This document shows, piece by piece, positions 7,529 to 40,664 of a DNA stretch of 55,737 nt. A program made the position numbers and the translations under genes. The stretch covers positions 1 to 55,737 of the forward strand of contig JWZX01003112.1 in the NCBI GenBank assembly GCA_001275005.1, read 5' to 3'. Below the pieces are notes generated by a model. The model was not told the origin of the DNA, did no database searches, and was given only the letters and a program-made list of their open reading frames with translations. The stretch is from Chrysochromulina tobinii (taxonomy: Eukaryota). Positions within the stretch are counted from its first letter, which is position 1, and each line of letters starts with the position of its first letter.

Positions 7529-10500
7529 CTAGGCCCTGGGCAGTACGGGCTCGATGATGGCGAGCTGCAGCTTGGGCCGATGGGCGCGGCTCTGGTCCAC
7601 CGAGATGGCCACGCGCACCTTGTCATAGTCGGAGCGTGGGGAGATGAGGGGGCGCCGTGGTGAGCACTTGCATGCAAGGCAGGTCATCAGTGGCAATCAA
7701 CGCACCTTGTCAAAGGTTCGAAGCGTGCAGCCGGGAGCGATGAGCGCGTCCGTCTTCGCGTCGTACGCAAACGCGCTGCGCTCGCCTCGGGCCGCCACGT
7801 ACACAATCCCCTCGATGCCGTACCTCGGGACCAGAACGACGACGCCATTCTCGCGCACCTGTGGGGAAGGGAGTAGGGCGCCGTGGTGAGCACATGCATG
7901 CACGAGAACGACGACGCCATTCTCGCGCACCTTGATCACGTACGCGTCCTCCTCGGTCGCCTTGGCGCGGAAGAAGATGAGCGTGTGCAGCGCGACCGAA
8001 GCCCGCCCGGCGTGCTGCGCGAGCGTGTGTCGCTGATTGAGGTTGTCAATCAGCTCGGTCGCGGCGCTCGTGTCGAGGGCTTCGCGTGGAACCGCTTCCC
8101 ACTGGATGATGGCCGCGAGGAGCCGGTGCGCCATCTGGTCCGCGTACCTGTGGGGAAGGGAGGAGGGCGCCGTGGTGAGCACCTGCATGCTGAGCTGCCG
8201 AGGTACTGGGGAGCGGGGCGTACCTGTGGGGAAGGGAGGAGGGCGCCGTGGTGAGCACGTGCATGCTGAGCTGCCGAGGTACTAGGGAGCGCGGCGTACC
8301 GGCGGATGGGCGAGGTGAAGTGCGTGTAGATGGGCGCGGCGAGGCCATAGTGCAAGTAGTCGGCGGGGGTGAGCGTGCCCGACGAGAAGTACCGTGCTTG
8401 CTGCATCGAGCGTGTCGCCAGGATGCGCACGAGCTTATTGAAGTACGGATCAGCGGGCTTGGTGCATGCATCGAGCGAGTCCGAGAGCGCGAAGGATGAG
8501 CTCGCATCAAGTTCGAAGCCGTGCGCGCGCAGCGCGTGGTTGAGGCCGTCGAAGGCGCCGGGGGGCGGCGGCGGGTGGCGGCGCAGGATCGCGTGCTGGG
8601 GGAAGGCCTGCGCTATCTGCCTCGCAACTGTGATGTTGGCGAGGAGCATAAACTCTTCGGCCATCGAGTTGGCCTCCTTGAGATTGTACATCGCCACATC
8701 TGTGGGGTCGCGGGTCTCCGAGTCGAGCACGAAGCGCACCTGTGGGGAGACGCGAGGGCGCGCCGTAAGTGAGCACTTGCATGCCGAGGGCCGCGGGTCT
8801 CCGAGTCGAGCACAAAGCGCACCTGTGGGGAGACGCGGGGGCGCGCCGTAGTGAGCACTTGCATGCCGAGGGCCGCGGGTCTCCGAGTCGAGCACGGAAG
8901 CGCACCTCGGGGGACGCGAGGGAGAGGGCACCGCTCGCCGCCCGCTTCGCCTTGAGCGCCTTCGCGAGCCGATTGAGCGTGCGCAGCGACTCGGTCAGAG
9001 GGTCAACGAGACGCGCGTCGTCCATCCGGAGCTGAGCCTGTTCACACGAGAGGGCCGCGACGGATCAGACGCACTCAGACGCACTCAGACGCAATCAGAC
9101 GCAATCAGTGGTCATCACTCTACCTGTTCATACGAGAGCGCCGCGACGGATCGGATGACCGTCTTCGCCACCTTGGTGCTGATCACATTCGCCTCGTGGT
9201 CGACGACCCAGATGACCGAGAAGGCGAGGCGATCGACCTTCTCATGAAGTGAGCAGAGGTCCTCGCCCAGCCGCTTGGGCACCTGTGGGGACGCGGGCGC
9301 GATCGGGTGCAATCAGTACGCCCATCCTATCGTCATCGGATGCAATCAGTGCCCATCCGATCGTCATCGGGTGCAATCAGTGAATATGAAATGGCCATGT
9401 CACTGTGAATATGAAATGGTCGCCACCAGCGAGGCGATCACGCGCGTACCATGTCGATGCGCCGATTGACGAGGTACACGGTCGTGGCTCGTGCGGCCGC
9501 CTCGGCATCGATGGGCGTCCCCGGCCTTGATGAAATGGCCCACGTCCGCAATGTGCACTCCCACCTCGTACCGCGGTGCGCCGTCTTGAGCGCTCGGCAG
9601 CGCGCGCGCATGCAGGGCGTCGTCGATGTCGACGCACCCGGGAGGGTCGACCGAGCACACGAGAGTGTGCCCGTCCTCACGCAGATCCAATCTGCGCGCG
9701 ATCTCGTCCGCCGGGATCGTCCACCCTTTGACCGGTAGGCACGATTGCACCTGCCATCAGCGGATGGGCGCCGTTTCGGTCATGAGGGTGTCACTCAGTG
9801 TCCATCGAGGGCGCTCCACTGCCTTCCGAAGCATCAGCAAGCCATGAAGAACAGGCCATCGGGAGAGCCCCCTCGGACGAGCGCACCTGTGCCGAGAAGG
9901 GCGCGGTGTTAACCTCATGCTCCATCAGGATCGCCTCCGATTCCGCATTCGTATCGCCCACCACCCCGAGAGTGCGCACGTAGTGACCGGTAGGGTAGCG
10001 GTGATCGGGCTCCCAAAAGTCGAGCGCCACCACGAGCAGCTTCCCACCGAGACTCTCCGCCTGGCGCGTGCTGCTCAACGAGGAGAGAGGATGCCACGCG
10101 GGGCCATCAGCATGCAACGCGGGGCCATCAGCATGCGATGAGGGAGGCCATCTGCATGCCACGCGGGGCCATCAGCAAGGGGCAATCAGCATGCAATGAG
10201 GGAGGTCATCAGCATGCAATCCATGGGCCCATTGATGGGCCATTGATGGGGCGCTCGCCTGATGTTGATGCGCGGGACCCGCTGGTCTAGTGGCTCCGCC
10301 AAATAATTGCCCCCGAGCCCACTATCAGGATCGAGCACGCACACGTACGGCCGCCAGCCACGCTTGACCACGCCGACCACCACCCCACACGCCCGCTTGC
10401 CCCTCGAGCCCGCACGCGCGCCGCTGCTGGGCGCCGAGGACCCAGGGCCGCCGCCGCCACTACCGCCGCCGCCACATCCATTGGGCGCCGCGGCGCCTGC

Positions 10501-11613
10501 GCTGCCCATGCTGGCCAGCTCCGTCTGATCGTCTCCCCATCCCGTCTCCACAGCCGTCTCGAGGTCCGCAGCAAAGGGCATCGCGCCCATGTCGCGCTCG
10601 CCAGCGCCGTCCTCCTCATCGTCGTCCGCGGCGGCGAGCGCAGCGCGATCCGCGAGCTTCGAGTCCACTTGATCAGTCCACTCGGCCTCGGGCAACAAAC
10701 GCACCGCCACGATGTCTCCGTCAATGGCGCGATTCAGCGCCTCGTCGCCGCGTAGCAAGATCGAAGTATGCCCCTTCAAGCTGCTCACGAAGACGGCACC
10801 CTGGCGCGAGTTGTGGCGCGAAATGTTGAGCTTGCCTTGATGAAGCTCGCCCGCCGTGAGCCCCGCCTGCAGCTGCGAGAGCGGCAGGTGCGCCACGTAC
10901 CGCACCGCACCCTTTTCCCTTTTCCCGCCGCCGCCGCCGCCGCCGCCGCCACTCTCCTCTCTCGAGCCCCCACCTCCTCCTCCGCCGCCGCCGCCGCCAT
11001 CGGCGGGCGCACTCGCGAGCACATCCATGAGCTCAGCCGCGTCGGCGCGCGCGCGCACGTGCTCATGGATGCTCTCGCACTTTAGCCCAGCGTCCCGCGC
11101 GAGCCGCCGGTTCTCTGCGTCGTTCGTCAGTAAGAGCACCTCGACTCCCGCCTCCTCCCCTAGCTGGGACTGGTACCATTGCGTGGCGACGCGGATGGCG
11201 CGGTCGTTGCGGTCATTGGGCGACTCGCCCGGCCGCCGCGCCACGAACGTCTCGCGGTGGAACTCGTTGCAGAAGACGTGGAAGCGACGCTGCTCGTCGG
11301 CGATGATCGAGCGCAGCCGCTTGTACACCGAGAGCTTGTTGTGACGCACCTCGTCGAGGACGGTCTGCAGCACGATCACGTCCGTAAGCGCCGGCCTCTC
11401 GAGCAGATCGATCTGGTGCAGCACCACGTTCGTGTCGAGCACATAGTAGCGCTCCGCGCCCTCGGAGAGCTTGGGCTCTAAGTCGGGTCCGTCGAGCTGT
11501 GGCGCGCCGGTGGGCAAGTCGTCGCGCAAATACGTCTGGCGCACGTGCGTCTTGACCGCGCCGCGCCGCGTGCGCTTGAGGAAGACCCGGTTCGCTGCGG
11601 AGGCGTGCTCCAT
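7529..11613 (-). CDS. DIS3: Exosome exo/endoribonuclease DIS3/RRP44
   Basis: PIN domain ([27 protein letters not shown]) and RNB domain ([44 protein letters not shown]). About 8 introns. Stop after IEPVLPRA. Confidence 0.95.
8148..8299 (-). mobile_element. Tandem pair of 76-nt introner-like units forming one DIS3 intron
   Basis: Two units, 8224-8299 and 8148-8223, each running GTACGC...CCCCACAG, interrupt the PIRR|YAD motif. Confidence 0.75.
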
Positions 11614-11864
11614 GGAGCGCGCACGGCGTGAGCGTCTGGCCACGAGTCCGCAAGCGCCGGGCTCGTGTTTCGGCGCGTCCACGTCGTCGAAGAGCGGAAC
11701 AGTTTCGGGGCGCTGTGCTGGTTTGTTACAGTCCAAACTTTGAGTCTGTCGGCCTGCGGAAAAGAAGTTTCACGTTAACGTTGAATGTACATATCGCCAC
11801 TAAAAATTTATAAAAACTCCAGCAATTGAACTCCAGGCCACTAAGTCCCACTACCTTTCTCTTT

Positions 11865-12656
11865 TCAAAGCTCGACCGAGTGTTCCCCTCCTTCTCCGTG
11901 CATTTGCTGGACGCCGCCTCCGCGCACCGTGGCGCGCGTGATGGTGATGCGCTGCTTCGGCATCACGAAGATGCCTTCCTTGCGCGTCTCGACCTGTTCG
12001 AGGGCGGCCAACACCTCGTCGCCCTCCATCACCTTGCCAAACACGGTGTACTCATTGTCCAGGTGCGCCGCCCGCCCGAGCAGCATCGAGAACGAGGAGC
12101 CGCCGCTGTTGGGATCCTCTGTGCGCCCCATCGAGAGGATGCCGCGCACATGCCGGATCGATGTGAATTCCGCAGGCACGGTCTTCATCGCCTCGGTCGA
12201 GCACTCTTGCGAGAGCGTCTTGGTGACTGCTCCGGCATAGATCGACTGAATTTGCGCCACGAAGCCCTTGTCGACCCGAAAGATGTGGTCGGTGTCATAG
12301 CATCCCAGCCGGAAGAGCTTGGAGATGTGCGCCACCGTCACTGGAGCGGCATTGGGAAAGAATGCGAGCACGACCTTCCCGAAGCCTTCGATTTCGAGAG
12401 TAATGCGCTCATCGCCCAATTCCAGCAGCTTTGGGTCGACCGGCTTTGGGCACGAGTTGCACGCCACCGGGCAGCCCGTGTGCATGAACCCAGGGTTTTT
12501 GGAACACTCGCCAGACGTCGCCCAGTTTTTGCAGTTGTCATGCTCGTCAACGCAAGCCTCGTCGCACGCGGCGGTTGTGAGCACGGCGAAGAGGAGAGCG
12601 TACGCAAGACGTTGCGTGGGAGCCCGACGACCGACGACGGGAAAGCGGTCGCGCAT
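11865..12656 (-). CDS. Cyclophilin-type peptidyl-prolyl isomerase with signal/TM segment and ShK domain
   Basis: ShK motif CVDEHDNCKNWATSGECSKNPGFMHTGCPVAC. Cyclophilin motifs IFRVDKGFVAQ, LSMGR..PNSGGSSF and HLDNEYTVFGKV. Confidence 0.92.
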   Translation of the reverse strand: MRDRFPVVGRRAPTQRLAYALLFAVLTTAACDEACVDEHDNCKNWATSGECSKNPGFMHTGCPVACNSCPKPVDPKLLELGDERITLEIEGFGKVVLAFFPNAAPVTVAHISKLFRLGCYDTDHIFRVDKGFVAQIQSIYAGAVTKTLSQECSTEAMKTVPAEFTSIRHVRGILSMGRTEDPNSGGSSFSMLLGRAAHLDNEYTVFGKVMEGDEVLAALEQVETRKEGIFVMPKQRITITRATVRGGGVQQMHGEGGEHSVEL

Positions 12657-12849
12657 GTGGCTGCCTCTTTCGCCGACGGTCGGAGTCCGACTGACTCGCC
12701 ACGACTTGTGGAAGCCTCCAAACTTCTTGCGATGTGAATGCTGAAGCGGGAACAAGGCCAAGACGAGCTGTTTATGGTCTGAAGTCCGGAAAAAATTTCG
12801 CATCAAATTAGGCATTTAGACAATGGAGCAACTGTGCGTAATCACGTGA

Positions 12850-14091
12850 ATGCTCCTGGCCCTTGTCCTCACCATCGCTTATGGTCAGCATGAGGAGGAG
12901 GCTCAAACGCTGGAGCCGTATAAACTCTACTCCAACTTCGACATATCCCACTTGATACGGCCAGGGATGAGTTGGTACGAGCTGTTGGATATTCGTCAGC
13001 AGCTCCGGCGGCCGACCCTCTCATTCTATGTGGACAAGAGGCAGTACAAGGCTCGAATGACGGAGCTCGGCATCGACATTCCGCAGATATATCACGTCCA
13101 GAATGCGGACCCCGCTGCGGACGAGGCTACCTTCGAGAGCATCACGCAGAGCCTCGAGAACCTTCTCGCCGTGCAGAAGGACTACGTGGCCAAGCCGACG
13201 CATTTATCGTGCTCCGACCAAGTCTATGTGGTTAAAAATGGGTTGAACATCTACTCGAAGCTACACGCGCCCGTGCAGCCGCGCCTTGTCGCCGCCAACA
13301 TGACGATGGCGCTTCGCACACGCAGCAGTGTGTGGGGAGAGAGCTGGGCCTTGCACCACGTGCCTCCGGGCATCCTGATTGAGGAGCGCATCTCCGCAGG
13401 GGGCGACGACGACACCGCTGCCCTCGAGTTCAAGACGATCGTGATCTGGGGCCGCGTGTGGGCCTCCGAGGTCAAGCGAGGGACGGACACCCTGCAGATC
13501 TTGGGGCGAGATGGGCGTGGTTTGCAGGGCGAGGGGCAGCACCCCGACCTCGCTCAGGTGGAGTGGGCACGCGTGAGGTCTCTCGCCGAGCGGCTGGCCG
13601 TCCACACGGACTGCTTTCGTGTCGACATCTTTGTCGCCGAGGCGCTCGCCTCTCGCCGCTCGGGCCTCACGGCCATTGACGAAACACGCGCAGAGGAGGA
13701 GGAGGAGGAGGAGGAGGAGGAGGAGGAGGAGGAGAAAGAGGAGCAGCAGCACCAGCACCACCAGCACCACCAGCACCACCAGCAGCAACCTGAGCGTGCG
13801 CGCATCTCGAGGTATCTCGTGAGCGAGGTCGAGATCTTCATGACGCAAAGCCTGCCGCTGTTCAAGCAGGCCGCGGCGCTCTGGCTAGAGGGATACAGCC
13901 GACGCATCGAGCTCATCCCAAATGGGGATATTCGCGGACCTTATGCGAGCATGCAAGACCCGGAGCGCGAGCAAGAGCGCTCCCACTTTGCCACGCTGCG
14001 CGACCGCGAAGCCGAAGGGCTCGGCTGGGCGAACACGCTCGGCAGTGCTCGCACGTACGGCTCACTTGAGCCCTCCTTCAAACACCTGTAG
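12850..14091 (+). CDS. Secreted TupA-like ATP-grasp protein
   Basis: Signal peptide followed by VDKRQYK, YVAKPTHLS, ILIEE, EFK, FRVDIF and VSEV, in ATP-grasp motif order. Contains a poly-E/QH insert. Confidence 0.65.
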   Translation: MLLALVLTIAYGQHEEEAQTLEPYKLYSNFDISHLIRPGMSWYELLDIRQQLRRPTLSFYVDKRQYKARMTELGIDIPQIYHVQNADPAADEATFESITQSLENLLAVQKDYVAKPTHLSCSDQVYVVKNGLNIYSKLHAPVQPRLVAANMTMALRTRSSVWGESWALHHVPPGILIEERISAGGDDDTAALEFKTIVIWGRVWASEVKRGTDTLQILGRDGRGLQGEGQHPDLAQVEWARVRSLAERLAVHTDCFRVDIFVAEALASRRSGLTAIDETRAEEEEEEEEEEEEEEKEEQQHQHHQHHQHHQQQPERARISRYLVSEVEIFMTQSLPLFKQAAALWLEGYSRRIELIPNGDIRGPYASMQDPEREQERSHFATLRDREAEGLGWANTLGSARTYGSLEPSFKHL

Positions 14092-14245
14092 TCATACCAT
14101 TCTCGAGTGACGAGACAAAAGACAAAAGTAAAATGCAGCAAATTCAAAAGGTGCTCATGAACTTTCGCCGAGACGACGCGTGCAAGTTTGTCTCGTGGGG
14201 AGCCCACGTGTGTCGTGATAATGGTCGACGTGAACAGCGGACGCA

Positions 14246-15373
14246 ATGGATGCCACGGAGCGGTGGCGGTCGAGATGCGAGGCTTCCGGTCTCGGCTACC
14301 TGCTGCAGCTGCGCTCACGCCAGTCGCACGAGTTGCCGGCCGCGCTCTTCGACGGCCTCAGCCTTTCTTCGGCTGGGATTGGCCATGAATCATGCGACAG
14401 AGGTGCAGGCAAGGCCATTGATGATTACATCCAGATGGCAAAGGCACTCTCCGACGATGTATTCGCTCCCCTCGCACGTACACGCTGTTCTGGTTGCGGC
14501 CGCTCGCAGCGATGGTACTGCAGCCGCTGTGAGATGTGGATGGACAATGTGCCTGAAGCCCATCGCCAACCGCTCGTGCTCCCCTTCCAAGTGACGGTGA
14601 TTGTCCGTGACGCGATCGAGGACTCGACCGGTATACATGCCGCAGCCCTGGCTACTCCGGTCGTCGTCCGTCACTTCCCGCACGGCCTTCGAAATGACGT
14701 GGCCACGACAGGTAGCGACGAGCCTTGGATCCGATTCGACGCGTCCTCGGTCGTGCTGTACCCGTCCCCAGGCAGCATGACGGTCGCGGAGCTCGTGGAG
14801 GAGCTGTGCCACACGGCCGAGGCCTCGAGGGTTGCTGGGGCTGCCGAAGCCGCCGAGAGTGAGCGAGAGATGCTGAGCCAGCCTCGACCAACGCCTCTGT
14901 GCACGATCATCGTGGTCGATAGCAAATGGCATAACGATGGTGCGGTCCTAGAGCATCCGTCCATCCGCGGTCTTCGTCGCGTTCGGCTGGAGTACCCGCC
15001 GGACACGTCGCGTATCTGGCGCAGCCACGCAAGGGCGACCGCTGGCTGCCTGAGTACGATCGAGGCCCTCTACTGCTTCGCCCGAGAGTTCAGTAGCTGC
15101 TCACGACGGCGCCAAACGGATCTTCCAAATTTGGGACTTCCGGCACCTCCCAATTCGGATACGAGCCTCTCCTGCTGCGGATACGAGCCTCTCCTGCTCC
15201 TCTTTGCGCTCATACACCATCGAATCGCCTCGCAGACGCGGGCGGGCGATCAAGCTCCGTTCGAGCCCGCTCGGAAGGCCGCTGCCTTGGCGCACCGCAA
15301 GCTCTCTGCGGCGAAGGGTTCGCGCGCCGCTCCCATGGCTGCGCAGGCTGAGGTGGCGCAGCCGGCCGTATAG
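14246..15373 (+). CDS. DTW-domain tRNA-uridine aminocarboxypropyltransferase (DTWD1-like)
   Basis: RCSGCGRSQRWYCSRC zinc motif, STGIHA, VVLYPS, VVDSKW and CLSTIEALY. Confidence 0.85.
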   Translation: MDATERWRSRCEASGLGYLLQLRSRQSHELPAALFDGLSLSSAGIGHESCDRGAGKAIDDYIQMAKALSDDVFAPLARTRCSGCGRSQRWYCSRCEMWMDNVPEAHRQPLVLPFQVTVIVRDAIEDSTGIHAAALATPVVVRHFPHGLRNDVATTGSDEPWIRFDASSVVLYPSPGSMTVAELVEELCHTAEASRVAGAAEAAESEREMLSQPRPTPLCTIIVVDSKWHNDGAVLEHPSIRGLRRVRLEYPPDTSRIWRSHARATAGCLSTIEALYCFAREFSSCSRRRQTDLPNLGLPAPPNSDTSLSCCGYEPLLLLFALIHHRIASQTRAGDQAPFEPARKAAALAHRKLSAAKGSRAAPMAAQAEVAQPAV

Positions 15374-15862
15374 GTTGACGTGAGGTTCGTGAGCGGCACC
15401 CGACTTAGTAACGCGACGGTAGCCGGTCCACCTCCTATTTGTAGGTTAGATAAGTTTTCTAAGTTAAGCACTTAACGCGGTTATGAAAGGCAGAGGGAGC
15501 GAGAGACGAGTTCCGAATCCACTAAGTCGATATACAACCGTAGTCGTCGTTGACGAACCGTGATTGACGAGATCCAATCGGGGGGATCCGAAAATCGGAA
15601 ACGAAACCCAATCGGTTCCAGACTCCAATGGTTGCCCTCATGCCGGACGCGTTCGACAGAAAACTCAGGATGCCGATCGCACAGGTCATGCCGATCGCAC
15701 AGGTCACTATGATCGAGCTCCTCCACGCGCTCGACGCCGCGCTGCACGGTGGCGAGCCACTCACTGAGATCGAGTATCGAACAATTAGGATCGCGATACA
15801 AGCGGGCAACAAAAGAACCGAGAGGAGCACACTCCCCGCAATCCAGGCGGCATGCCGTCGCC

Positions 15863-16135
15863 TCTGCAGACCTCAACAATTCCCGTCCGCTGAAAGTGCG
15901 GCGGCCGCCAGCGGCAGCAAGGCGCCCCGATGCACCTTCTGGGTGACTAAGATACAGAAATGTATCGCCGACGAGACAGGAGGTACTGCCACCGCGATTT
16001 GCAGACCTCAACAATTCCCGTCCTCTGCGAGTGCGGCGGCCGCCAACGGCTGCAAGGCGCCCTGGTGCACCTTCTGGTTGACCAAGCTTCGAAAATGCAT
16101 CGCCGACGAGACGGGGGATACTGCCACCGCGATAT
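15863..16135 (+). repeat. Imperfect ~135-bp direct duplication within an unassigned ORF
   Basis: The peptide CRPQQFPS..AAAA.G.KAP.CTFW.TK..KCIADETG.TATAI is encoded twice in tandem. Confidence 0.75.
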
Positions 16136-16543
16136 CGGACGGACGGACTGGCGGCGCCGGTAGCTCATCCGCCCCCCCCAAGGCGTGCTCGCAAGAGGAA
16201 GTCGCAGCACTCGATGGGCTCATCTCACTCGGCGAGAGGGGTAGTAATGTCCCTCGCACTCGATGACGTATGTGTGCAGGTATGCAGGTCTTACGCCACG
16301 CGCCTAGAACGGCTAACCGCCCACCGCCCCACCAGGAGGTGTTTCGCCGGCTAATCAAGATAGACGAACAACGACTCAGGCATAATAAAGTATATGTTAC
16401 GTTATCGCGATAGTGAAACTCAAACTGCCGACTCCCCCGTCCAGCCCCAGGCGCGCCTCGTGCGCGCGAAACGACATGACACATGTAACATCGAACACGG
16501 AAAAGTGCGGTCCACGGCTCCACGCGGGAATAACCGTCGCGTC

Positions 16544-19500: not shown

Positions 19501-20211
19501 CCAGCAAAAGGTCGAATCAAGATACCAGCAGAGCTCTCCTGCCGACGCGGGCGCGCGCACGTGGATGACTGCGCCGCTGATCTCGAAGCCCACGGCCATG
19601 CGCTCCCCGGCCGTAGTATACACGCGCCCGGCTCGGTGGGACGTCACCGCCAGCGCCGCCTGGTTGGAGTTTGTGCTCGTGCCAGGTGCGCCCTCAATAC
19701 TGGCGACGATAAAGATCTCGGCGTACGCGCAGCCGCTCGTCGTGTTCACGTCGGCGCACTGGTCGCTGACATCGCGAAAGTAGATGGTGCGGTGGTTCAC
19801 CGCCCACGTGTCGAGCGCGCGCTTGATCACGTCCCGCAACTCCTCGCACGTCAGGAAAGTGGTCTCCTGCGCGTTTCCCGTCGGATTCTCCTCGGGGAAG
19901 AGGTGCAGCATTCTGCGGCACAGGTCACGATGAATGGCGAAGGTGATCCCCCCTGACAGCCCGTTGGTTGTTGGCGCATATGCTGCAGGTTCGTTCACGC
20001 CCGCGTTTGAGACTGAGCCTGTGGTCGCAGGAGGCGTATGGCCCCAACGAATCGCCACAGTATCCAGGCGAAAGCTGGAAGGGCCCCTCCACTGCGCGTT
20101 GGCACTATTGTAATACCCCGGGTTGTCGGCAGTGCTGTACCGCGCAGATGGCGAAGTGATCACCCATCCTGAGCACTGTAGCACCGCAAGAAGAAGAGGA
20201 CCGCCCAGCAT
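16544..20211 (-). CDS. Membrane metzincin (matrixin-like) metalloprotease with cytoplasmic SH3/Tudor-like repeats and a PDZ domain
   Basis: Signal peptide, HEVGHVLGFHH zinc motif, SIM Met-turn and DDLEGLNFL|YP across intron 18258-18625. Three hydrophobic helices, three V.RS.GDE repeats and a PDZ motif (VTAVEPNSPASKAGLHAGDLILAVD). Confidence 0.8.
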
Positions 20212-20414
20212 GTTTGTAGCGATGGAATTGGGTGAATGTACCGGGTGTAAGTTGGCCTGCGGAATTCGGTCTGCAAAGGAGCAAAACGTACGTAAGATAC
20301 TCGACCCCTGAGCTGGATCCAAACCCGCATGTTAGGGCTCATTGATTGACGGAATGCATTTCGCGAATGCGGAACGGACGCAGCGATTAGCAGCGAGCGC
20401 AAACAGAAAATCGG

Positions 20415-22803
20415 ATGGCTTACATCGATGCGAGCGGTCTGCCGGACCCATTGCCCTTCCGCGTGGCGGGCGTCGGCTCTCTTCCAGGCTCGCCGCGGCA
20501 CGGCAAGGCTGCACCACCACCGACGGCATCGCCACGCTCGACGCGCTACGTGTGGAACCGGAGCGGCATGTGGGTCGAGGAGGAGCCCGCCCTAATGGGC
20601 GGCCACAAGATGCCGACCGCGCCCAAGTCGGGCAGCACGGTGCGCCGCGGAAGCCACCGCGCGCACATGCTGTCGCGCTCCGATCCAGCGGCCGCACCAC
20701 TGCCCAAGGAAAGCAGCAGCCTGCCGCCCATCTCGGGCATGCTCGAGGGAGGCGCGACAACGGAGACCGAGCTATGGACGGAGGTGGTGCTGCCCGCGGT
20801 GACGTGGCTGTACGGCTGGGTCGAGTGGCAGGTGGACTCGAGGCACCATAGGATGCCCTCGATCGTCGAGCGTGAGCACCGTACCGCCTTCAGCCTCGCG
20901 ACCGAGCGTGTCGCCGATGCGATCCGCGCGACGCCCGACCGGCTCGCCGCATGCATTTGGCGAGCGATGGTGGCGCTGCTGAGCCACTTTGTGGAGCGGG
21001 TGTACCCGGTCTTTGGCGCCTTCGAGCGGATGCAGCTCGAGCTGCAGCACACGCGCTCCCGGCTCGATGAACTCCTCGCCGCCCGCGGAGTCGCGGTGGA
21101 CGCATTCGACCAAAGTAGGAAGAACGACCCTCCAAACACGGCGGCGGAGGCGGCGGCAGACGAGGCGGCAGCAGCGCGCGCGTCCCTGCAAACCCCCGAC
21201 GGACCGCGCGCCGCGAACGTCAGCGGCGGCGTCGCCGTCTCGACCCTCATCGGGGCGCCCGACGCGTCGTACCGGGCGTCTGACAGTGGGCGAAACCGCC
21301 GGTTGAGCAGCCACGAGTTCCACAGCGACGCCGAGCTCCGTGCGGCGCATGCGGAGATCGACGAGCTCAAGCAGAAGCTGCTTGGGGCACAGCGCGACCT
21401 CCTCATCGAACGCAACCAGAAGGCGTATGCCGAGCAGAGGCTGTCGAAGCAGAAGGCAGTACAGTTCGCCGAGGGCGGCGGTCTGAGCACCAGCAGCGCG
21501 CCTGGGGCACCGCCTGGGCTGCATCGTCAGAATACGCTCCGGCTAATCGAGGACGATGTGGTGGAGCGGCTCGAGGCTGAGCTTGACGAGGAGCGCAAGC
21601 AGCGACGGGTCCTCGAGAAGCTCAAGAAGCACCTCGCCGCGCAGATGGGCGACGCGTACATGCAGCGGCTGCTCATGACGCTCGGAGCGGAGGATGGCGC
21701 CGTCGCGGGCGCCGATGAGGAGGGCGCTGGCGCCGACGCGCGCGCCGACGTGGGCACCCAGGTGGACGAGGTCGAGATTGAATCTGGAGGTGCGGTGCTC
21801 GAGATCGAATCTGGAGGTGCGGAGGGCGAGGAGGAGGGCGACGACGAGGGCGTCGAGGGCGAGGAGGAGAGATTCGATCTCGATCTCGGCACCTCCAGAT
21901 TCGATCTCGAGGGCGAGGAGGCGAGCAGCGGCGGCGGAGCGGAGCGCCGTGGTGGGCGCAAGGGACGTTACCGGTCAGATGTGCGCAGCTACAATCCGAA
22001 AGGTCAGAAGAAGGCTCTGTCTCTGGGCAGCGGCGGCGAAGGTGTTCTTCGGCTGCAAGGGGCTGTGGTGCACTCGACGATCCGCATCATGTACGACGCG
22101 AAGCTCAAGCGGGATGCCGTCGACGAGCTCGAGCATCGGACCAAGGTGGAGCTCGGCGCCTTCGTGCTTGATTGGTACTCCCAGCGCCACGGGATCCATC
22201 AGATAGCGAGCAAGCACCTGCAGCAGTTCCGAGAGGGCGTGAAGAGTTCCACCGTCGCCGGCTCACGCCGCACCTTCCTCTTCGGCGCCTTCGCGGGCTA
22301 CTTCCCTTTTTTGGGCGACACGTCACTCACGATGCGCGAGCCGACGACGCTCCAGGTGAGGCAGCGTTGATTGCCTCTGATGACCGACCTTGCATGCATG
22401 TGCTCACCACAGCGCTCTCGACCTGCTCCGGCGACGCTCCAGTTCTTTTTGGACTTTGAGCGCAAGGCGGTGCGCGCGGCGGGCGGCGACGAGCGCACGT
22501 CGGAGGACAGCTCGATTTGGCTACCAATCGACCGCGCCGTCGAGCTGATGCGCAACGAGTTCCGTAACGCGCGCGCGCCCGACATCGCGAAGGCGACGCT
22601 CGAGATCGAGGATCTCGTGCGCCTGCCGAACGAGATTATCGAGTACTCGAAACGGTTCAGTTCCATGATGGCCGCCGGTGAGTCGAGCGCCAAGGCTGGC
22701 GCCGCGGGCGTCGCTGCCGCCAAGGCCGACGTGTCCGCCCGACTCAGTGGATGTACGGTCGCTGCGCCCTCCTCCGCCGCCTCCGCCGCCCGCTCCTCCG
22801 CCG

Positions 22804-22836
<33 letters not shown>

Positions 22837-24558
22837 CCGCCGACAGCGAGCTGTACGCGGGTCTGGAGCCTGCACTCGCATCGTCGCTGCACTCGATGCT
22901 GCACGACCGGCAGGGCCTCGAAGTCCTCGACCAAAAGGGGACCGACGAGAAGGAGAAGGTGCTCCCAGCGACGCGACGAAGCCCTCGTGCATGCAAGTGC
23001 TCACCACGGCGCCGTGCTCCCTTTTGCACAGGTGCTCCAGCGACGCGACGAGGCCCTCGTGCAGAACAAGGTCTTACGCGCCCTCTCGCGTCGTGGACTC
23101 TCCTTGAGGGAGCTCTTCCACCTGCTCGATACGAATGGCGATGGGGAGATCGACCCCTCCGAGTTCGTCAAGGGCGTGCAGGTGTGATGAGCGCGCGCTG
23201 AGAAGGATCGCTGAGTGCCATGGCGTGATGATCGCTGAGTGCGACGGATTGGCGCGAGATCGCATGCGAGTGCTCATCACGGCGCGAGATCGCATGTAAG
23301 TGCTCACCACGGCGCGAGTTCGCATGCAAGTGCTCACGACGGCGCGATATTGCATGCCCCGCAGGAGCTCGAGGGATGTCTGAGCGTCTCTCAAGTCGAG
23401 CGGCTGATGACCATCATCGACACCGACCACAGCGGCACCATTGACTTCCACGAGCTCGCCAAAGGGCTTCAGAAGATCGACCTGCGCGTCGAGGTGAGCG
23501 CGCCTCATGGGTACCCTCTGGGCCCCCCACCCTCTGCTTGCCCCTGCTTGCCTCTGATTGCCCCTGCTTGCCTCTGATGGCCTTCCCCTTGATCGAGCGC
23601 AGGTGTACGAGTATATGCTCGTGGTGATGCGCCTCTATTCCGCCGAGATGGCGCGCACGGCCCAGCTGCTTCGCGCTCGCTTCGATCAGGCACGCGCTGA
23701 TGTGGCCACCCAAGCCGCCAAGGACATTGACCTGGCCAAGGATCCCGCAGCCAAGGTGGCCGCCGCTAAGGCCGCCACCGCCATCGCGGAGCTCACGGCC
23801 AACGGCCAGCTGCCTGCCGAGGCAGTCAAGACACTTCTCAAGCAGCTCGACGCTCCCTTTGCGCCGGTACGACTGATGACGACTGATGACGACTGATGAC
23901 GACTGATGACGACTGATGACGACTGATGACGACTGATGACGACTGATGACGACTGATGACGCTCCCTTTGCGCCGGTACGACCGAGTGGATTCAGTTGGG
24001 GAGTGATGACCTCATGAGTTCCCGTATGTGCCTCGGGGTGCCTCTGAGTGCTTCCCTGATTGCACCCCTCATTAGGCGGACGCTAGCCGACTCATTCACG
24101 AGATGGGAAGGGATTCACTGCCGGCTGGCGCCGGCGGAGCCCCGAACGCGAGCAAACGCGCCTCTGAGCGCCTCTCCCTTGCACCCGATGTTGGGGGTGC
24201 GCCGCTCACGCTACCGATCAATCGCGACGCCTTCACACGCGTGTGCATCGCCAACGGGTTCACTGCACTGCAGAGCTCCGCGTTCAAGGAGATGGGGCAG
24301 GCCATCCAGTCCTCGGTCAACGCTATGATGGTCGCGAGCTCCTTCGTGCGCAAGCTCCCCTTTGGCAAGAAGAAGACGCTGCCGCCGGACGCGGGCGGAC
24401 CACTGATGACCACTGATGACCACTGATGACCACTGATGACCATTGATGACCGCCGGACGTGGGCAGACCAGCACCGGCCGAAGCCACCTAATTTGGTCCA
24501 AAAGGAGACGCCACCGGCGGACGCTGGCACGGGACGAGGCCGAGCGCCTCCGGCCTGA
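20415..24558 (+). CDS. Large coiled-coil protein with EF-hands (multi-exon)
   Basis: Long first exon with coiled coils. Later exons encode LDTNGDGEIDPSEF and IDTDHSGTIDFHEL. The 3' exon structure is uncertain. Confidence 0.65.
23872..23960. repeat. Intronic (GACTGATGAC)n tandem repeat
   Basis: About 9 perfect 10-nt copies. Confidence 0.95.
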
Positions 24559-27397: not shown

Positions 27398-27494
27398 TGT
27401 CCGCGACCCCGGACGTATGGCAAGACAGGACCGCTTTGGGGATGTCGGTTGCTAAGTTTGCGCCACGTGTGACAGACAGTTTCGTCAGAAAGTA

Positions 27495-28825: not shown

Positions 28826-31684
28826 TCATCCGACCGGCCGAGTGCTCACATAATGGTACTCGGCGAAGTGCCCCAGGTAGAGACGCGTGCGCAGCTCGAC
28901 TTTCCACACATCGGGCGGCTTGACCACGTGGCAGTAATCCTCGGAGAGTGACGAGATCACGCAGATCTCGGCCTTAAAGAGCACCTGCGGGGACGGAGGG
29001 CACCGTGGTGGGCACTTTATTTGCATGCAGAGGCGCAGTCGAGGGGCAATCAAGCCATACCGACATGGCGAGCAGGGTCGCCTCATCGATTGCATGCAGG
29101 GTCGGTATGGCTCTGCATGCAATCAAGCCATACCGACATGGCGAGCAGGGTCGCCTCATCGCCCCATGTGCGCCCATGCTGTTCCATCTCGGCGAGGTAC
29201 GCATGCCAATTGTCCACCCCCACAGAATCCTTGAGCATGAAGCGCTCGCCCACCTGATGGCATGCAATCGGGTGATGGCAATCGGGTGATGAATCACGCA
29301 ATCAGGTGACGGCAATCAGATGATGGATCACGCAATCAGCCCAAATCTGGCGCTGTGAGGCACGAGAGGCACTCGGGGGCTCTCGGGAGCAGCCCCATTA
29401 AGGTCATTAAGGTCATTAAGGTCATTAAGGTCATTAGGGCTTTCAGGAGCAGCCCTAGGCAACGTAAGGCAATCATCTTGCCATCGTCCATCGCTCGACT
29501 GCCATTCGTCAAATGCAATCACATGCAATCACATGCAATCATATGCAATCATATGCAATCATATGCAATCATATGCAATCACCTTGCCATCGTCCATCGC
29601 TCGACTGCCATTCGTCTTGAGCCATTGCACCGCCTTTTGACGAAGCTTGAGAGCATTGTAGCCGCCAAAGCCCACCTGCTCGAGCATCGCCATCCGAGGC
29701 AATCAGTGGCAATCACATGCAATCATACGCAATCAGGCTATCAGAGGCCATCACCTGCTCGAGCGGGCAATCAAATGCAATCATATGCAATCATATGCAA
29801 TCAGGCCATCACCTGCTCGAGCTGGTCGGCGATCGCGTGGAACTGGCAGTTGTTATCGCCGGGCACGTCCTTGATCTTGAAGCCGCGCACCCCAAGGTGG
29901 CGCGCGAGGCGAGAGCGTGGGTCCTGCGGCAGGTGCTTCTCGGCTTCCTTTTCGCGTGCCTTGTTAACGCGGTCGCGCAGCGCCTGATGAGGGGGGCAAT
30001 CAGAGGTCATCCAGACGCAATCAGAGGTCATCCAGACGCAATCAGAGGTCATCCGAGGCACTCCAAGGCACTTGCCACACACCGGAAACGGACTCAGAGG
30101 CACTCAGAGGCACTCAGAGGCACTCAGAGGCACTCAGAGGCACTCAGAGGCACTAAGAGGCACTCAGATGCAGTCAGAGGCACTCAGAGGCACTCAGAGG
30201 CACTCAGATGGCCTTCCCACCTGCAGCTCAGCCGACGGCTCCGACGCCACGATCCCACGCGTTGTGTTGGGCGCCATGATCCCACGCGTTGGCGGCTTCG
30301 CGCTTGGCGGCTTCGCGTGGTAAGGCCCCTCGCCACCAAGCGTGTCTGGCCTAATCGTGTCTTCCCAAATGTTCTTCGGCCTCTCCGACCTTGTCCCCGC
30401 CGCGGCGGCAGCGGCGGCGGCGGCGGCGGCGGCGCTGCCACCAATCTTTCCAGCGGGCATAGCGGCCATCGGGATGGCCACCTTGGGATACATGGTGTTC
30501 GCATACTCGTACGACGGCGGCGTTGGCGCCGGCCGCGTTGGCGTCGTTGGCGTCGGCTCGTCGGGTCGCCCACTACGGCGCTCGTCGGGTCGCCCACTAC
30601 GGCGCTCGTCGGGTCGCCCACTACGGCGCTCGTCGGGTCGCGCGAACGCCGACGGCCCTTCTGCGGCGCCGCCGCCCATGGGTGCGCTCACGACGGCGCT
30701 CAAGTCCGCAGCGTCGCCACCAGTGGGCACGTCGGGCGCCGTAGTGGGCATGGTTGGCGCCGTAGTGGGCACGTTTGGCGCCGTAGTGGGCAACATGGGC
30801 GCCGTAGTGGGCAGCTGATACGGGCCCGCCAGAGGCCGTGCGAGCGCCGTAGTGGGCAACGCGAGCTGCTGCTGCTCGACCTGCTTCTCGACGCCTTCGC
30901 ACCGAATCGTGTAGTACGGGGGCATGTCGTCGTTGTGAACCACCAAGACCTCAGCGGGGATCGGCGCACCCTGAGCCGGATGATAGAGGACCACGTCGCC
31001 CTTGGCGAACAGCACGGCGGGTGGCGGCGGGGCGCTCGGCGGCAGGGCGTAGGGAGTTCCGGGCATCGGCGACGGCGCTGAGACTCCCCGAGCAGGAGCC
31101 ATGCTCGAGGCGGCGTCCGTCGCATCGCCGCGCCCCAATACGAGCGGTACACCCGCTACGCCTGCCCCGGCGGCCGCTACGCCGGCCGCCGCCACGCCAG
31201 CCGCCGCGGCGGCGGCCGCAGGCTTGAGCTTGGGCTTGAGCTTGGGCTTGGGCTTGGGCCTAAAGCTGGCCCAGCGCTGCTCGAGCTGCGCAATCATGTC
31301 CATCCGAAACTGGTCGCCATCGGGCGCCGCCTCCGGCAGCGGCGCGGGCTCCGCCTCGTTGAGCATCCTCGTCAGCCGTGGTTTGAGCTCCTCGAGCGCG
31401 TCGACCACCGATAACAGGTCGCGCTGGAGTTTCAGGTGCGCCGTCGACTTTTTGTTGATGGAATTGGCCTTGCTGATCGTCTCGTAGAACTTTGCGAAGC
31501 GAAGCATGAACACAAAGGCCTCCTTTAGGCTGCCGAGTGTGTTCGCATTGTACTTTTGGAAGGCGACGACGCGCAGGTGCTCGGCCTGCTGGTAGAGGCG
31601 CTCGGGGTTTAAGAAGCTGGATTTGTCGCCGAGGGACCCGATCTTGTCGCCCTCGGCCACGAGCCGCTCCATCTCACGCCCCAT
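28826..31684 (-). CDS. OTU-family deubiquitinase with N-terminal helical (USP8/MIT-like) domain
   Basis: DVPGDNNCQFHAIADQL, WGDEATL and HFAEYHYVS catalytic motifs spread over several exons. N-terminal EAFVFMLRFAKFYETI and a Pro-rich linker. Confidence 0.85.
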
Positions 31685-31717
31685 GTTGAGAGTGCGAGCA
31701 CTTCCTCGCGCGAGTTC

Positions 31718-32564: not shown

Positions 32565-32596
<32 letters not shown>

Positions 32597-35500
32597 CTGG
32601 AGCTGGTGCACGTGCTGGCTCTGGTCGTCCATATTAGGCACGCGCCTCTCATGTCTCACGCAAACGAGCGCACCTGGCCGCCGCGGCCGCCGCCGCCGCC
32701 GCCGCGGCCCCCTTTGGCTGCGGCGCCCTTGGCCGCGCCTTTGCCCTTTCCCTTTCCGCCTTTGCCCTTTCCGCCTTTGCCCTTGCCAGCACCTCCCTTG
32801 CCAGCCCCTCCCTTGGCGCCGGCCGCGCCGTCGACGGTGATGATGGCAATCGTGGACATGAGGGAGAAAGCGCTCATCGGGATGATCGAGAAGCTCACCC
32901 CTAGGCGGGCCGCGGGCCGCAAGCCGCTGCCGCTGCCCTCGAGGGGGGCGCTCTCAGCCCCCCGTGACGAAACCGCGCCCCGTGACGAAACCGCCTCCCG
33001 TGACGAAACCGCGCCCCGTGATGGTGTGGCCGCCACCGCCCCGTGTGTCTTCAGCTGCCCGCCGTGCCCAGATGGCACGCCCGCCTCCGCCGCCTCCGCC
33101 GCCTCCGCCGCCTCCACCTCCGCCAGCTCCACCAGCTCCGCCTCCGCCTCCCAGTCAAACACCTCCTCGACTGCGGCCACAGCCGCGGCGAGCCCTCGGA
33201 CCACGGCAGCGGCCGCAACGGCCTTAGCCCCCTTGCCCTTCTTGCCGACGAGCTGATGGCGAAGGTCATTAGCGCCCAAGCTCGCGCTCACGGCGCTCCC
33301 CTTGCCGCCCAACACGGCGCTCCCCTTGCCGCCCAACACGGCGCTCCGCCCCTTGGTGCGTCCTCCGCGCGCGTCCGGCTCGTCCTCCTCCTCGTCGTCG
33401 TCGTCGTCCTCGTGTTCGTCAAACGGTTGCTCGCCGTCCTCCTCCTCTTCGTCGTCGTCGCGTCGTCTTAAGCGCACTGCGAACGCAGGCTCGTCCTCGT
33501 CGTCCTCGTCGTCCTCCTCCTCCTCATCCGCTTCCACCTCCTGAGTGTGCTCGTCGTTGCGCGCGAATCCCTTGCCTTTCCCCTTGCCTGGCATCGACGA
33601 CCCCTTGGCACCGGCCGGGGCGTTGTGATGAGCACTTGCATGCATCGACGACCCCTTGGCACCGGCCGCGGCGTTGTGCGGGCGCTGTGCTGAGCTTCGC
33701 GGTGCCGACGGACGTGGCGCCGAAGGGCGCGGCGCCGACGGCGCGGGGGGCGCGGCGCTGTGCCGAGCACCTGGCGCCGTGTTGGGCTCCGGCGCGGGCT
33801 CAGGCACGGGCGCCGTGTTGGGCTCTGTCTCGGCGCTGATATCGTACACGGCGGACGAGAGGGTGAGCCGGATGACGCCCACGGCGGCGCGTAGCACCTG
33901 ATGAGGGAGGCAATCAGAGGTCATCAGGGTGAGGAGAGTCGGATGACGCCCACGGCGGCGCGTAGCACTTGGGAGCCATGATCGTGCCCTAATGAGGGAG
34001 GCAATCACATGCAATCACATGCAATCAATGCAATCACATGCAATCAGGCCATCACCTGGGAGCCATGATCGTGCCCTAATGAGGGAGGCAATCACATGCA
34101 ATCACATGCAATCACACGCAATCAGGCCATCACCTGGGAGCCATGATCGTGCCCTAATGAGGGAGGCAATCACATGCAATCACATGCAATCAGGCCATCA
34201 CTTGGGAGCCATGATCGTGCCCTAATGAGGGAGGCAATCACATGCAATCACATGCAATCAGGCCATCACCTGGGAGCCATGATCGTGCCCTAGGATCGCC
34301 TCGCCGTTCACAGCGACCAGGAGCTGCCCAGGCAAGATCTCGCCCGACTCGGCGGCGATGCAGCCTGGCACGACCGTCAAGATCGTCGGCGCGCTCTGGC
34401 TGTTCCCCTTGAGAGTGATCCCAAGTCGCGAGCTCGCCGTGGGCTTCTTCAGCTTGATGTTCACAGTGCCAGCCGCCCAGGGGTTGGCAGGTGGCGGCGC
34501 TGCCTCGGTGGCGGCGGCCGGCGCTGCCGCGGCGGTGCTGGCGGCGCCCGGCACGGCGCCCGCCATGAGTCCTTTGCCCACACCTTTGCCAACTCCCTTG
34601 CCCGCACCCTTGGCACCTTTCCCTGTCGACACCGACGCCTCGGCGGCGGCGCTCGTGACGGCGCTCGAGGCCGGCGCCTCCGACGAGGCGCCGTACCGGG
34701 CACTCTTGGGCCCTCCCTTGGGCACCGCGCCGTTCTGGGCGGCCGCTTCGACGGCCGTTGGCGCCGAGTGCAGCCCGAGGCCTTTCGCGCCTCTGACGAA
34801 ACCCTTGGCGCCCGCGACGGCGCCGACGGATGGCGCCGTACCGGGCACGGCGGCCGCCGCCCCGTCCACCGGCGGCAAGGTGCCATCCTCGACGCGCCGG
34901 CGCGCCTCGGTGAGCGCGAGCGTGTCGGCTTGCTTGAGCCACTCCTGCCACGTGGCAGAGGGTCATCAGCGGTCATCAGGGGCAATCAGCGGTCATCAGG
35001 GGCAATCAGCGGTCATCAGAGGCACTCAGCGCACCTGCCACGTGGCGGGCGCGCCGCCCGTCACGCCCTTGCCACCCCTGCCGCCCTTGCCCTTGCCAAG
35101 GAACGCACCGACCTTGCCCTCGGCGTCGAGCGCCGTCGCGGGCGCCTCGGCGAGCCGCCCACCCTTGCCTTTGGCGAACGCTTCGCCTTTGCCGAGGCGC
35201 GGCACGGGCGCACCGGCCTCGTCGCCGCCTTTGGCCGTCGCTGGGGCTGCAGCTCGCTCCGCGGCCGCACGAGCTGCAGCCGAGATCGAGATCGACATCT
35301 CGTCGGCGTCTCCGGCGAGCAGCTTCTCCTTTTCGAGCCGCAACCGCTCATTCTCCGCGCGGACGCGCCGAAGCTCTTCCCGCAGCTCCGCATTGGCAGA
35401 CATGCCGGAGGGCACATCCCCTCCTAGGTTCTCGAGCATTTGTTGCCGGGCGAAGGCCGCCGCGCCCTTGCCCTTGCCGCCGCGCGTACCGGCGCCAGCA

Positions 35501-38469: not shown

Positions 38470-38726
38470 GATAATTTCGGAAGTCTGCGCGACTTCCGGC
38501 GCGCGCAATCCACGCGTCGCTCGCGGGACCGCGTGTGAAAAAGAACTAGTCGATTACCCCCCGTGTGTGAAATACCGCCAGTGAGAAACCAAAATAGTCT
38601 CGACGATCGCCGCGCGAACCTCGCGAGTTGCCCGCTATGGTGCCGGTTTGAATTGCCGCCCGCGCTTAACGGTCGACAATTTAGCCCTTCCAAGATCTTG
38701 AATGTATTCCGAATTAAAGAGTCACG

Positions 38727-40664
38727 TCACCCTGTGTCCTTTCCGTCAGCACGCACCCCGCGCCTCTTCGCCGCCTTGCGCGCCTGGCGCAGCGCCCCCG
38801 CCGGCGAGAGCTCGAGCACCTGACGCAGCGTGAGCCCGCACAGGCCGCACGTCTTCTTGCAGTTGGTGCGCATCCACGACGAGGTGGCGCAGGGGCCTTG
38901 CTTGTCGTGCAGGTTCGCGGCCGAGTTGCCCTCAGCCTCGCACCCAGCAAAGTCGGCCCACGGGCTCCCGAAAGCGAGCACCTCGGGCGGCGTGTCGTTA
39001 CATCCTATCGCTTCGAAGGTCAGCGGGCGCAGCCTGTCGCGCACGCGCTTCGCGAACGTGGACGCGCGCACGGCACTCTCCGCGGCGCTCGGCACACGGT
39101 ACGGCACGGGCGCAAACGGCGGCTCCGCGTCGGGCGGCAGTGAGCACTCCGTGTCGCAGATCGTGGGGAGTGATGCATTGATGGCCTTGGCCATGGCGTC
39201 GTACCCAGGGCCTCGCACGGCACGCTCGTTGCGCGGGTCGCCCACCTGTGGGGATAGGGCGCCGTAGTGAGCACTTGCATGCAGGGCTCAAGGAGCGCGA
39301 GGGTCGCCCACCTCGGGCAGCCAGTGGTAGCAGTGCGTGGGTAGCCTGCGGCGTGCCATGCGGATGGCCAAGCACGCGTGGATGTGCTGGCAGCACGAGG
39401 CGCGCGTGTGGCGCCAGTTGAAGCGGAATGGCGTGTCGGCAAAGATGCGCTGGCACGCCTCCAAAGCAATGGGGCTGCTGCCCCCAACTGGGCAGTGCAG
39501 CCGGCTCATCGGCACCCGGCTGTGCATCTGCGTCGGCGACGAGCGATGGCGAGCGACGACCCTAAGCAGCTCCTCGCCATCAAAGTCGTCTTCAGCGCCC
39601 GACCGTTTCGCCGCGGCGATCCGCTCGGCCCGTGCGCGCAGCGTCTGCGACTGGTACGCGGCGTTGGCCTGCCGGAAGGCGCGGAGCCGCGCTTGGAACG
39701 GCGCGCCCAGCGCGGACACCTTGGCCGCGAAGGCCGCCGAGAAGGCCGCGTAGAGCTCGTGATCGAAGGGCGCGACCTCACGAATACGCGCGTCGCACGC
39801 GGCCGGGTCTGGGCACACGGCGGAGACCGACGGCTGCGCGTAGTGCGGGTTGGTGGTGCCTGGGACCGCGCGCATGTGCAGCAGCCGCTGCAAACCAGTC
39901 AGGTCTGCCAGCAGCAGCAGCGTCTCGTCAAACCGCTCCATCAGGCCCACCAGGTCAAACGAGGAGAGGAGGGAGCGCAGAAGGGCACGCTGCTTGGCGC
40001 CCTCGCCAGGGCGGCGGGCGACCGTGGCCCCAGGTGGCAGCTGGCCATCGGGGCCGGGCGCGTCGTCGAACTGCGAGTACTCCCGGCGCTTCGCCTGCCC
40101 ATCTTTCGTGTTCACGCCCAGGAACTCGGCCCAAGTCGCATCGATCGGACGCAGCATGATCGAGCTCTGCAAGTTGCGCGGCGCCCAGTCGAGAATGGTC
40201 GCGCCGAAGAGGGTCGAGTTGCGCGCCTGGCGCCACGAGACTGTCCAGCGGTAGAAGGAGACGTAGTAAGACGTCGGCTCGCGCAGCCGCGTCACGAGCA
40301 CCACGGTGCACTGGCAGCGGAGCGCGACCTGCTGCAACGGCGACGTGGGCCCAAACGCGGCGAGGATCGTGCGCATGCCCATGCGCGAGTAGTGGTGCTC
40401 CGCGAAGAGGCGAAATGGTGCGCGGCGATCCCAGTCCGAGCAGCTCGCGTTGCGCGGGCCCAGCAGCGCGGCCGTCAGCGTGTCAGTCACCTGCCAGTGC
40501 TGGTGCAGTCCATAACCCCAAAAGCCCCAGCCGTCCAACATGTCGTTGGTATTCACGATGTGGCGCAGCGTACTGCCACCATTCTTGTGCGTATGACGCT
40601 CGAGGACGATCGAGCACGGCTTCAGAGGCGTCACCAGCCACGGGGCGAGCGGGCGCTGTGACAT
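38727..40664 (-). CDS. Sulfotransferase-like protein (Gal-3-O-sulfotransferase type) with C-terminal ShK-like domain
   Basis: HTHKNGGSTLR (5'-PSB), VTRLREPTSYYVSFY (3'-PB), FDLVGLMERFDETLLLL and WMRTNCKKTCGLC. Intron at 39246-39311. Confidence 0.8.

Follow-up and report, generated by a model that had tools for sequence, protein, structure and literature searches.

The origin of new spliceosomal introns is a long-standing open question, and the available text of a recent survey attributes bursts of intron gain mainly to transposons (PMC12130899). The closest described systems include introners that borrow a splice site from a duplication, found in Symbiodinium, Polarella, and a marine Chrysochromulina metagenome-assembled genome. 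In the accessible parts of those reports, repeated intron sequence lies in unrelated genes, the duplication gives GT or AG, splicing is precise, and a strong genic bias toward one strand is evident (PMC9860276/bioRxiv 2022.06.06.494994, bioRxiv 2020.10.14.339549). Here we scrutinized a 55,737-nt stretch of DNA from the freshwater alga Chrysochromulina tobinii (contig JWZX01003112.1, assembly GCA_001275005.1; hereafter the window), in which many introns consist of a copy of the next exon's first bases, a shared 24-nt core, and an acceptor, together with related loci on metagenome contigs. These introns had all of the traits just listed. Whereas the duplications of such introners are described as 3 to 8 nt and fixed per class, those studied here were 12 to 51 nt and variable; up to half of the intron was locus specific, both ends varied, inverted repeats were absent, and the parents were often local. 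We propose, at a probability of roughly 0.55, that these introns were made by template switching, in which the mending of a staggered break copied an existing, often nearby, intron.

Other systems resemble the family in part, as far as the available text of each report goes. Break-repair gain in Daphnia likewise yields polymorphic introns of recent origin that carry a direct repeat of the adjacent exon, and young introns there are lengthened by internal repeats, but the repeats there span 4 to 12 bp and the sources are mostly unknown (PMC4202315). In C. tobinii the inserts would come from a family of introns already in place, with a source that can be traced in single cases, and the process would thus feed itself. 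Gain by tandem genomic duplication also relies on a duplicated exon that supplies splice sites and leaves the protein unchanged (PMC3443670), whereas in C. tobinii the copies enclose a cassette that was brought in from another place and holds a branch point and an acceptor, so that one short duplication suffices. Fungal sister stwintrons, unlike the introns described here, are without duplications (PMC8469720). Replitron-1/N1 of Chlamydomonas share with the family copy-and-paste spread, variable duplication, and a parent-derived variable end with a palindrome near it; unlike the family, Replitrons are 0.9 to 3.6 kb long, carry terminal direct repeats, use a fixed RG target, and are not reported as intron makers (PMC10288648), and no sequence shared with the family was found. 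Introns are mentioned once in the accessible portion of the C. tobin genome paper (PMC4580454), and C. tobinii scored 0 introner families in the 2025 survey as far as its available text shows (PMC12130899). No published description of this intron family was found in the literature searched, which excluded most subscription journals. The process is an intron-gain variant between introners and break-repair gain.

Copies of the core, initially annotated as GCATGCA(A/T)..(C/T)ACGGCGC..pyrimidine tract..CACAG, were counted in the window at up to three mismatches. Thirteen matches were found against 0.00 expected (100 shuffles), and a 14th (8769-8784) carried a 1-nt insertion. RNA contigs from four runs, aligned to positions 7000-23700 at 99% likeness, revealed 14 joints, of which 13 had GT..AG or GC..AG ends; the remaining joint occurred in one run only, linked two cores, and was taken as spurious. 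The core was present in seven of the 13 RNA-verified introns, all cut at GT..AG, and 10-mer motifs were present in the other six. In agreement with the initial annotation, the four introns that it had named, at 7859, 8740, 22959, and 39246, had the claimed limits and the claimed build of next-exon copy, core, and acceptor (Table 1). Splicing of the first three at GT..AG was confirmed, and in the third the join uses TGCA microhomology, as suggested for some cases. The predicted intron at 39246 contains an in-frame stop, its flanking frame is open across the gap, and the same intron occurred in a metagenome locus (L093) at 98.6% identity. Segments that had been called core relics (7640-7680, 22392-22415, and 23260-23350) did contain cores, but these are no relics: they lay inside introns spliced at 7619-7705, 22356-22442, and 23182-23364. 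The supposed relic near 33.6 kb likewise held a core, although within an in-frame insertion rather than an intron. Two core introns, at 1774 and 8148, had been overlooked.

Three builds were evident. In one form the duplication gives GT; in a longer, donor-carrying form it gives AG; and a third class comprises acceptor-less insertions. In the donor-carrying intron at 7619 a 12-nt duplication spans both junctions and provides AG, while that at 22356 ends in a copy of the previous exon (11 nt exact; 15 nt with one mismatch) that does the same. The 10-mer intron at 9038 is built as a mirror image, its 3' end being a 29-nt copy of the previous exon (two mismatches) that provides AG. Repeat-induced misjoins could produce an assembly artefact, given the many repetitions of the core and the ends of short-read contigs there, but RNA contigs of the four runs removed exactly these segments at GT..AG and the same introns were found in independent assemblies. 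The artefact is refuted for the RNA-checked introns, and its probability overall is negligible.

Table 1. Core-bearing and related features of the window, with strand and basis
Feature	Position	Strand	Basis or remark
Core intron, 76 nt, GT77 glycosyltransferase gene	1774..1849	+	predicted; begins with 15-nt copy (14/15) of next exon
DIS3/RRP44, host gene with eight introns verified by RNA (span approximate)	7528..11769	-	Pfam RNB, PIN_4, Rrp44_CSD1
Donor-carrying intron, 87 nt, 10-mer part + core	7619..7705	-	spliced in 4/4 RNA runs
Intron, 72 nt: exact 26-nt next-exon copy + 3-nt filler + core + acceptor	7859..7930	-	spliced in 4/4 RNA runs
Intron, 152 nt, two 76-nt units	8148..8299	-	spliced in RNA contigs
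Intron, 166 nt, two units, each 34-35-nt next-exon copy + core + acceptor	8740..8905	-	spliced in 4/4 RNA runs
Intron, 86 nt, 10-mer family, mirror build	9038..9123	-	spliced in RNA contigs
Donor-carrying core intron, 87 nt	22356..22442	+	spliced in 2/4 RNA runs
Intron, 73 nt, ~32-nt next-exon copy (one indel), core joined via shared TGCA	22959..23031	+	spliced in 3/4 RNA runs
Intron, 183 nt, three tandem 30-nt core units	23182..23364	+	spliced in 4/4 RNA runs
Degenerate core, 3' end of longer predicted intron	28985..29030	-	sequence
Acceptor-less core, 51-nt in-frame insertion between two 37-nt low-complexity reading-frame copies; not an intron	33591..33678	-	sequence
Predicted intron, 66 nt: 15-nt next-exon copy (one mismatch) + filler + core + acceptor	39246..39311	-	sequence

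A scan of metagenome contigs returned at least 138 loci and, with one further contig (L001), 139 loci plus the window formed the basis of the family statistics; unless otherwise stated, the counts below refer to the loci listed. Listed loci, L001, and the window together held at least 341 core matches, at least 296 of them distinct, in at least 122 independent places. Summed contig depth in run X8 was ~16,000 over the core and ~48 over single-copy parts, a figure that is not a copy number. L001, an IMG/VR contig and the sole match in the viral contig collection, carried a complete core with acceptor; its two long open reading frames (ORFs) had no Pfam match, and it is likely misfiled host DNA.

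Upstream duplications were called at a score of at least 10 in copies with an acceptor and enough flank (n = 185, listed loci and window, tandem units included), and 127 of these were preceded by a copy of the next exon's start, against a null of 0.4%. In agreement with the claim of long, variable duplications, those of the 77 listed single-unit introns (65 to 134 nt in length) measured 12 to 51 nt, with a median of 26 and quartiles of 19/26/33. Only one of the 77 sits behind another, older acceptor; among the remaining 76, 29 duplications were perfect and 91 of 2004 bases differed. The duplication had been described as running straight into the core, which holds for the eight of these 76 introns in which the two abut or overlap, while filler lies between them in the rest. 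A donor-like target preceded by G was seen in 83% of the same introns, a preference for which selection alone could be sufficient cause. Intron lengths were spread evenly modulo 3 (28/24/25 of the 77), which makes it unnecessary to invoke tolerance of in-frame copies left unspliced. Among copies without the usual acceptor, 63 of 95 had a flanking repeat against a null of 5% (tandem arrays included), and eight of 11 acceptor-less single insertions were a multiple of three in length, hence in frame.

The core itself spans 24 nt with sharp, conserved limits. Intron tails were hypervariable (169 kinds among 194 listed copies). A second family, in which 10-mer repeats form introns, showed the same long duplications and accounted for 99 of 563 direct repeats that were found independently of the core. 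The initial annotation had envisaged a tiny element as the unit. Variation at both junctions, the donor-carrying and acceptor-less forms, and a second sequence family built alike argue against any such unit with fixed ends. Related introns do occur in multiple copies in unrelated genes, with precise splicing and presence/absence insertion, as introners do, but similarity within 10 intronic bases of both splice sites is lacking, the 5' 12 to 51 nt or the 3' end being locus specific. Nor do the introns resemble DNA transposons with terminal inverted repeats or miniature inverted-repeat transposable elements: no terminal inverted repeats are present, as had been noted, the ends vary, and duplication length is not fixed. 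Arrays of other short repeats, at L006:3143, L014:562, L020:2651, and L021:4681, were also flanked by 18- to 26-nt direct repeats, as if reiterative synthesis had filled a staggered break. In two 10-mer introns on the + strand of the window (~966-1181 and 1445-1672), a second unit (~1106-1181 and 1592-1672) made of a next-exon-start copy and an acceptor part stands behind an older unit.

Equal frequency of antisense or intergenic cores would have spoken against an intron-forming family. With the window included, 214 of 218 core pairs were co-oriented, as were 146 of 160 cores relative to the nearest 10-mer intron marker, a proxy that is blind to rare antisense copies outside genes. A coding-strand model assigned 68 sense, 14 antisense, and 18 unclear among 100 acceptor copies and 9, 4, and 10 among 23 others; this model was noisy and was not used as proof.

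Filled and empty alleles suggest that the introns are young. One metagenome locus (L112) carried an 81-nt insertion with a 33/33 duplication, and two others (L016 and L054) had a single copy of the duplicated sequence in an open exon. Alignment of 13 overlapping locus pairs revealed complete presence versus absence in one pair and a difference in unit number in two; no further orthologous overlaps at lower identity were found among the listed loci. Tandem unit number was two versus one between samples in L011 versus L046, in L031 versus L070, and in 8740-8905 versus a contig of run X21. In the window, DIS3, whose nearest named homolog of like length is that of Prymnesium parvum (75%), offered a comparable series. 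Proteins called on other contigs and 98 to 100% identical to the window DIS3 served as allele markers. Four of these (P0126, on 31 contigs of up to 9.8 kb, P0128, P0131, and P0132) start in the translated 8740 intron and read through the 8148, 7859, and 7619 sites, and P0129 starts just behind the 8740 site and reads through the same three. P0133 starts inside the 8148 intron and reads through 7859 and 7619, while P0127 (six contigs) reads through all four C-terminal sites. The alleles are nested: none; 8740 only; 8148 without 7859 or 7619; and all four. In relatives 70 to 79% identical, on contigs of 10 to 236 kb, DIS3 runs as a single ORF through all four sites. Partly spliced transcripts are unlikely to lie behind these markers and are least excluded for P0127. 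Gene callers started ORFs at an ATG inside the core (P0126, P0133, P0153, and cluster mates), so translated core contaminates protein collections and such proteins mark intron presence.

These data bear on the possibility that the introns are old, that ectopic conversion and duplications spanning the 3' splice site remade their sequence, and that empty alleles represent losses. Second units behind older introns do exist (~1106-1181 and 1592-1672), direct repeats could drive precise loss, and unit number varies between strains. Against this stand the single ORFs of the relatives across all four DIS3 sites, the nesting of the DIS3 alleles, and the one in 77 listed single-unit introns behind another acceptor. 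Turnover of old introns is largely excluded and very improbable as the general explanation, and the proviso that the positions might be ancient did not hold, as they are empty in close alleles and relatives. The DIS3 and L112 data are most simply read as intron gain within this lineage, although precise loss between duplicated copies may add some empty alleles. The core introns are likely recent gains and the family is likely still spreading. Within DIS3, we also observed one base missing at window position 9523 in all four RNA runs, where the frame shifts, probably through assembly error; a G8660A difference in all four runs; and a GC-AG intron (10071-10258, - strand) built of 10/11-mer repeats and spliced in all four.

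Parents could be traced in single cases. The L112 insertion contains a 49-nt cassette identical to that of a putative parent intron ~480 nt downstream in the same gene, with no other match at two mismatches among the 139 listed loci and the window. In the window, the first 33 nt of the glycosyltransferase intron at 1774 recur (31/33 each) only in the two units at 8148, 6.4 kb away on the opposite strand. Of the first 15 bases of these units, 14 to 15 match the glycosyltransferase exon and only seven to eight that of DIS3; the agreement with the next exon of DIS3 itself amounts to just 6 nt. The reading frame at 1774 joins as in KOO24240.1 of C. tobinii, which belongs to the 90% cluster of this GT77 gene. 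N-termini derived from this intron were found in nine of 17 fetched GT77 proteins, and no genomic-looking one lacked the intron (15 of 56 cluster members listed). Unlike this putative parent, 8148-8299 is missing from most DIS3 alleles. The cassette of the 7859 intron (last 43 nt) differs at two positions from the 8148 units and is closer to them than to any other of 194 listed copies. The similarities make a copy chain from 1774 to 8148 to 7859 likely, and its order matches the nesting of the DIS3 alleles. Across the family, the best partner was local for 24 of 111 arrays versus 1.9 expected (mutual pairs counted twice, loci mixing strains), and pairs with shared upstream sequence numbered eight among 407 local ones and 44 among 41,599 distant ones.

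Target-primed reverse transcription of an intron or pre-mRNA by a non-LTR enzyme, primed at the intron 3' end and with variable 5' stops, was considered as a source of such copies. That process typically leaves long, variable duplications and truncated 5' ends, and both were present; the geometry fits CAG priming, sense orientation dominates, and whole-intron copies from GT to AG exist (the 8148 units and a pair in L059). However, no A-tails were found, copies that carry a donor or lack an acceptor terminate within the parent, and no reverse transcriptase domain was detected in the scanned ORFs. In one case, the L059 pair, five exon bases upstream of GT that are missing from an excised intron are shared. 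Enzymes acting in trans are not expected to copy locally or from an opposite-strand neighbor, and the local, opposite-strand copying observed here does not fit them. No Rfam match was obtained in 7500-9200 at E up to 1, where tRNA, 5S, and the 7SL head were sought. We consider a retro-type origin unlikely.

A minimal non-autonomous HUH element of the Replitron or Helitron type, spreading by copy-and-paste, is likewise improbable. On this view, the element read antisense would begin precisely at the acceptor on its left, hold a palindrome ~40 nt further in, run on into the parent flank, and make a variable duplication. In the available text on Replitron-1, insertion is orientation specific, duplication is variable, ends are parent derived and "fuzzy", and a palindrome lies near that end; C. 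tobinii is listed there with a single Replitron-like fragment (PMC10288648). The core introns share the variable duplication and the parent-derived variable end. Core polarity also fits: 258 of 273 left halves have the right half behind them, and 261 of 384 right halves have the left half before them. Tandem arrays are common. On the other side, inspection of core and cassette ends revealed no terminal direct repeats, folding showed no excess (median -3.5/-4.0 versus -4.0 kcal/mol shuffled), and a palindrome of at least 10 nt occurred in only 39 of 295 listed copies, one of 6 to 8 nt being present in 237. The supposedly precise end varies and shows microhomology. Three core motifs had no match in the seven supplements of the Replitron report, in whose accessible text such duplications are seen only in Chlamydomonas by Craig (PMC10288648). 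Transposase, reverse transcriptase, and HUH domains were absent from 42 window ORFs (E 1e-3) and from 50 of 436 long locus ORFs (E 1e-12), a weak test. An autonomous partner sharing the core, for which a search had been suggested, was likewise not found by this weak test of 92 ORFs. A long-range search at 58 copies without a short duplication found no long element and gave one weak match, judged to be chance.

Template switching, which the initial annotation had named alongside a retro-type route, would accommodate these features if it takes place in break repair and its template is often a neighboring intron. Two offset nicks or a stalled fork would leave an exonic 3' end, which would anneal by a few bases to another intron, mostly at the acceptor junction (AG|GT) or just past the core. 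The polymerase would copy the core and a variable amount of the parent that lies past the core, in the extreme case the entire intron, and return 12 to 50 bases behind its start, thereby duplicating the target. Selection would retain events in which GT opens the duplication, AG closes it, or the frame is preserved. Every survivor could then be copied in its turn, and slippage from one copy of the duplication to the other would give tandem units or precise loss. Polymerase theta is a guess for the acting enzyme, and the template may be DNA or nascent RNA. As described in the available text, theta-mediated joining at overhanging breaks produces microhomology-linked tandem duplications, sometimes with templated inserts (PMC5730883). 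Consistent with break-repair gain, a direct repeat of the adjacent exon stood at the far intron end, junctions showed microhomology, and inserts were locally templated. At acceptor-less junctions, at least two bases were shared with the target in seven of 12 cases (a small number) versus 12% expected, and plain 9- to 42-nt duplications between strains left the same footprint. Taken together, variable ends, microhomology, parents that lie nearby or on the opposite strand, the existence of two sequence families, and the plain duplications point to template-switching repair synthesis.

Several observations weigh against this account. The 24-nt core is sharply conserved, also in in-frame insertions without splicing benefit, and conservation even where the core is unspliced is more suggestive of a selfish element's cis signal than of passive filler. 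No local best partner was found for 87 of the 111 listed arrays, some long shared flanks join different contigs (L096/L102 and L053/L084), and exact tail identity was not locally enriched (0 of 130 pairs at 250 to 2000 nt). The 8148 units differ from 1774-1849 at nine of 76 bases, too many for a very young copy. Empty DIS3 alleles are deduced from gene calls, and no acting enzyme was identified.

Elsewhere in the window, positions 30556-30813 hold tandem 21- and 24-nt repeats, on both strands and inside open frames, with a variant of the core right half, and similar arrays were found in L039 and L059. Two HEAT-repeat genes, at 24965-27451 (- strand) and 43645-47943 (+ strand), share a 102-nt unit in opposite orientation.

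C. tobinii offers a culturable alga with a burst of introns, segregating filled and empty alleles, traceable parent-child pairs, and no transposon ends; if the strain differences and nearby copying hold, intron birth becomes directly observable. Given that each of the 13 introns verified by RNA between 7000 and 23700 has either the core or 10-mers, and that DIS3 of the relatives is one ORF, the process may have built most introns of the genome. Screens described in the available text demand two-ended similarity and drop low-complexity families, and so would miss such introns; similar cases may be undercounted, and these filters may be the cause of the zero-family score of C. tobinii (PMC12130899). 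More tentatively, and at somewhat less than even odds, we envisage a transposase-free chain reaction of intron birth, in which repair synthesis copies the cassette of a neighboring intron into a staggered break, the duplication supplies the missing splice site, and the products become templates. Such a chain reaction would account for most C. tobinii introns, would be active in lake populations now, would be invisible to current introner screens, and may be common elsewhere.

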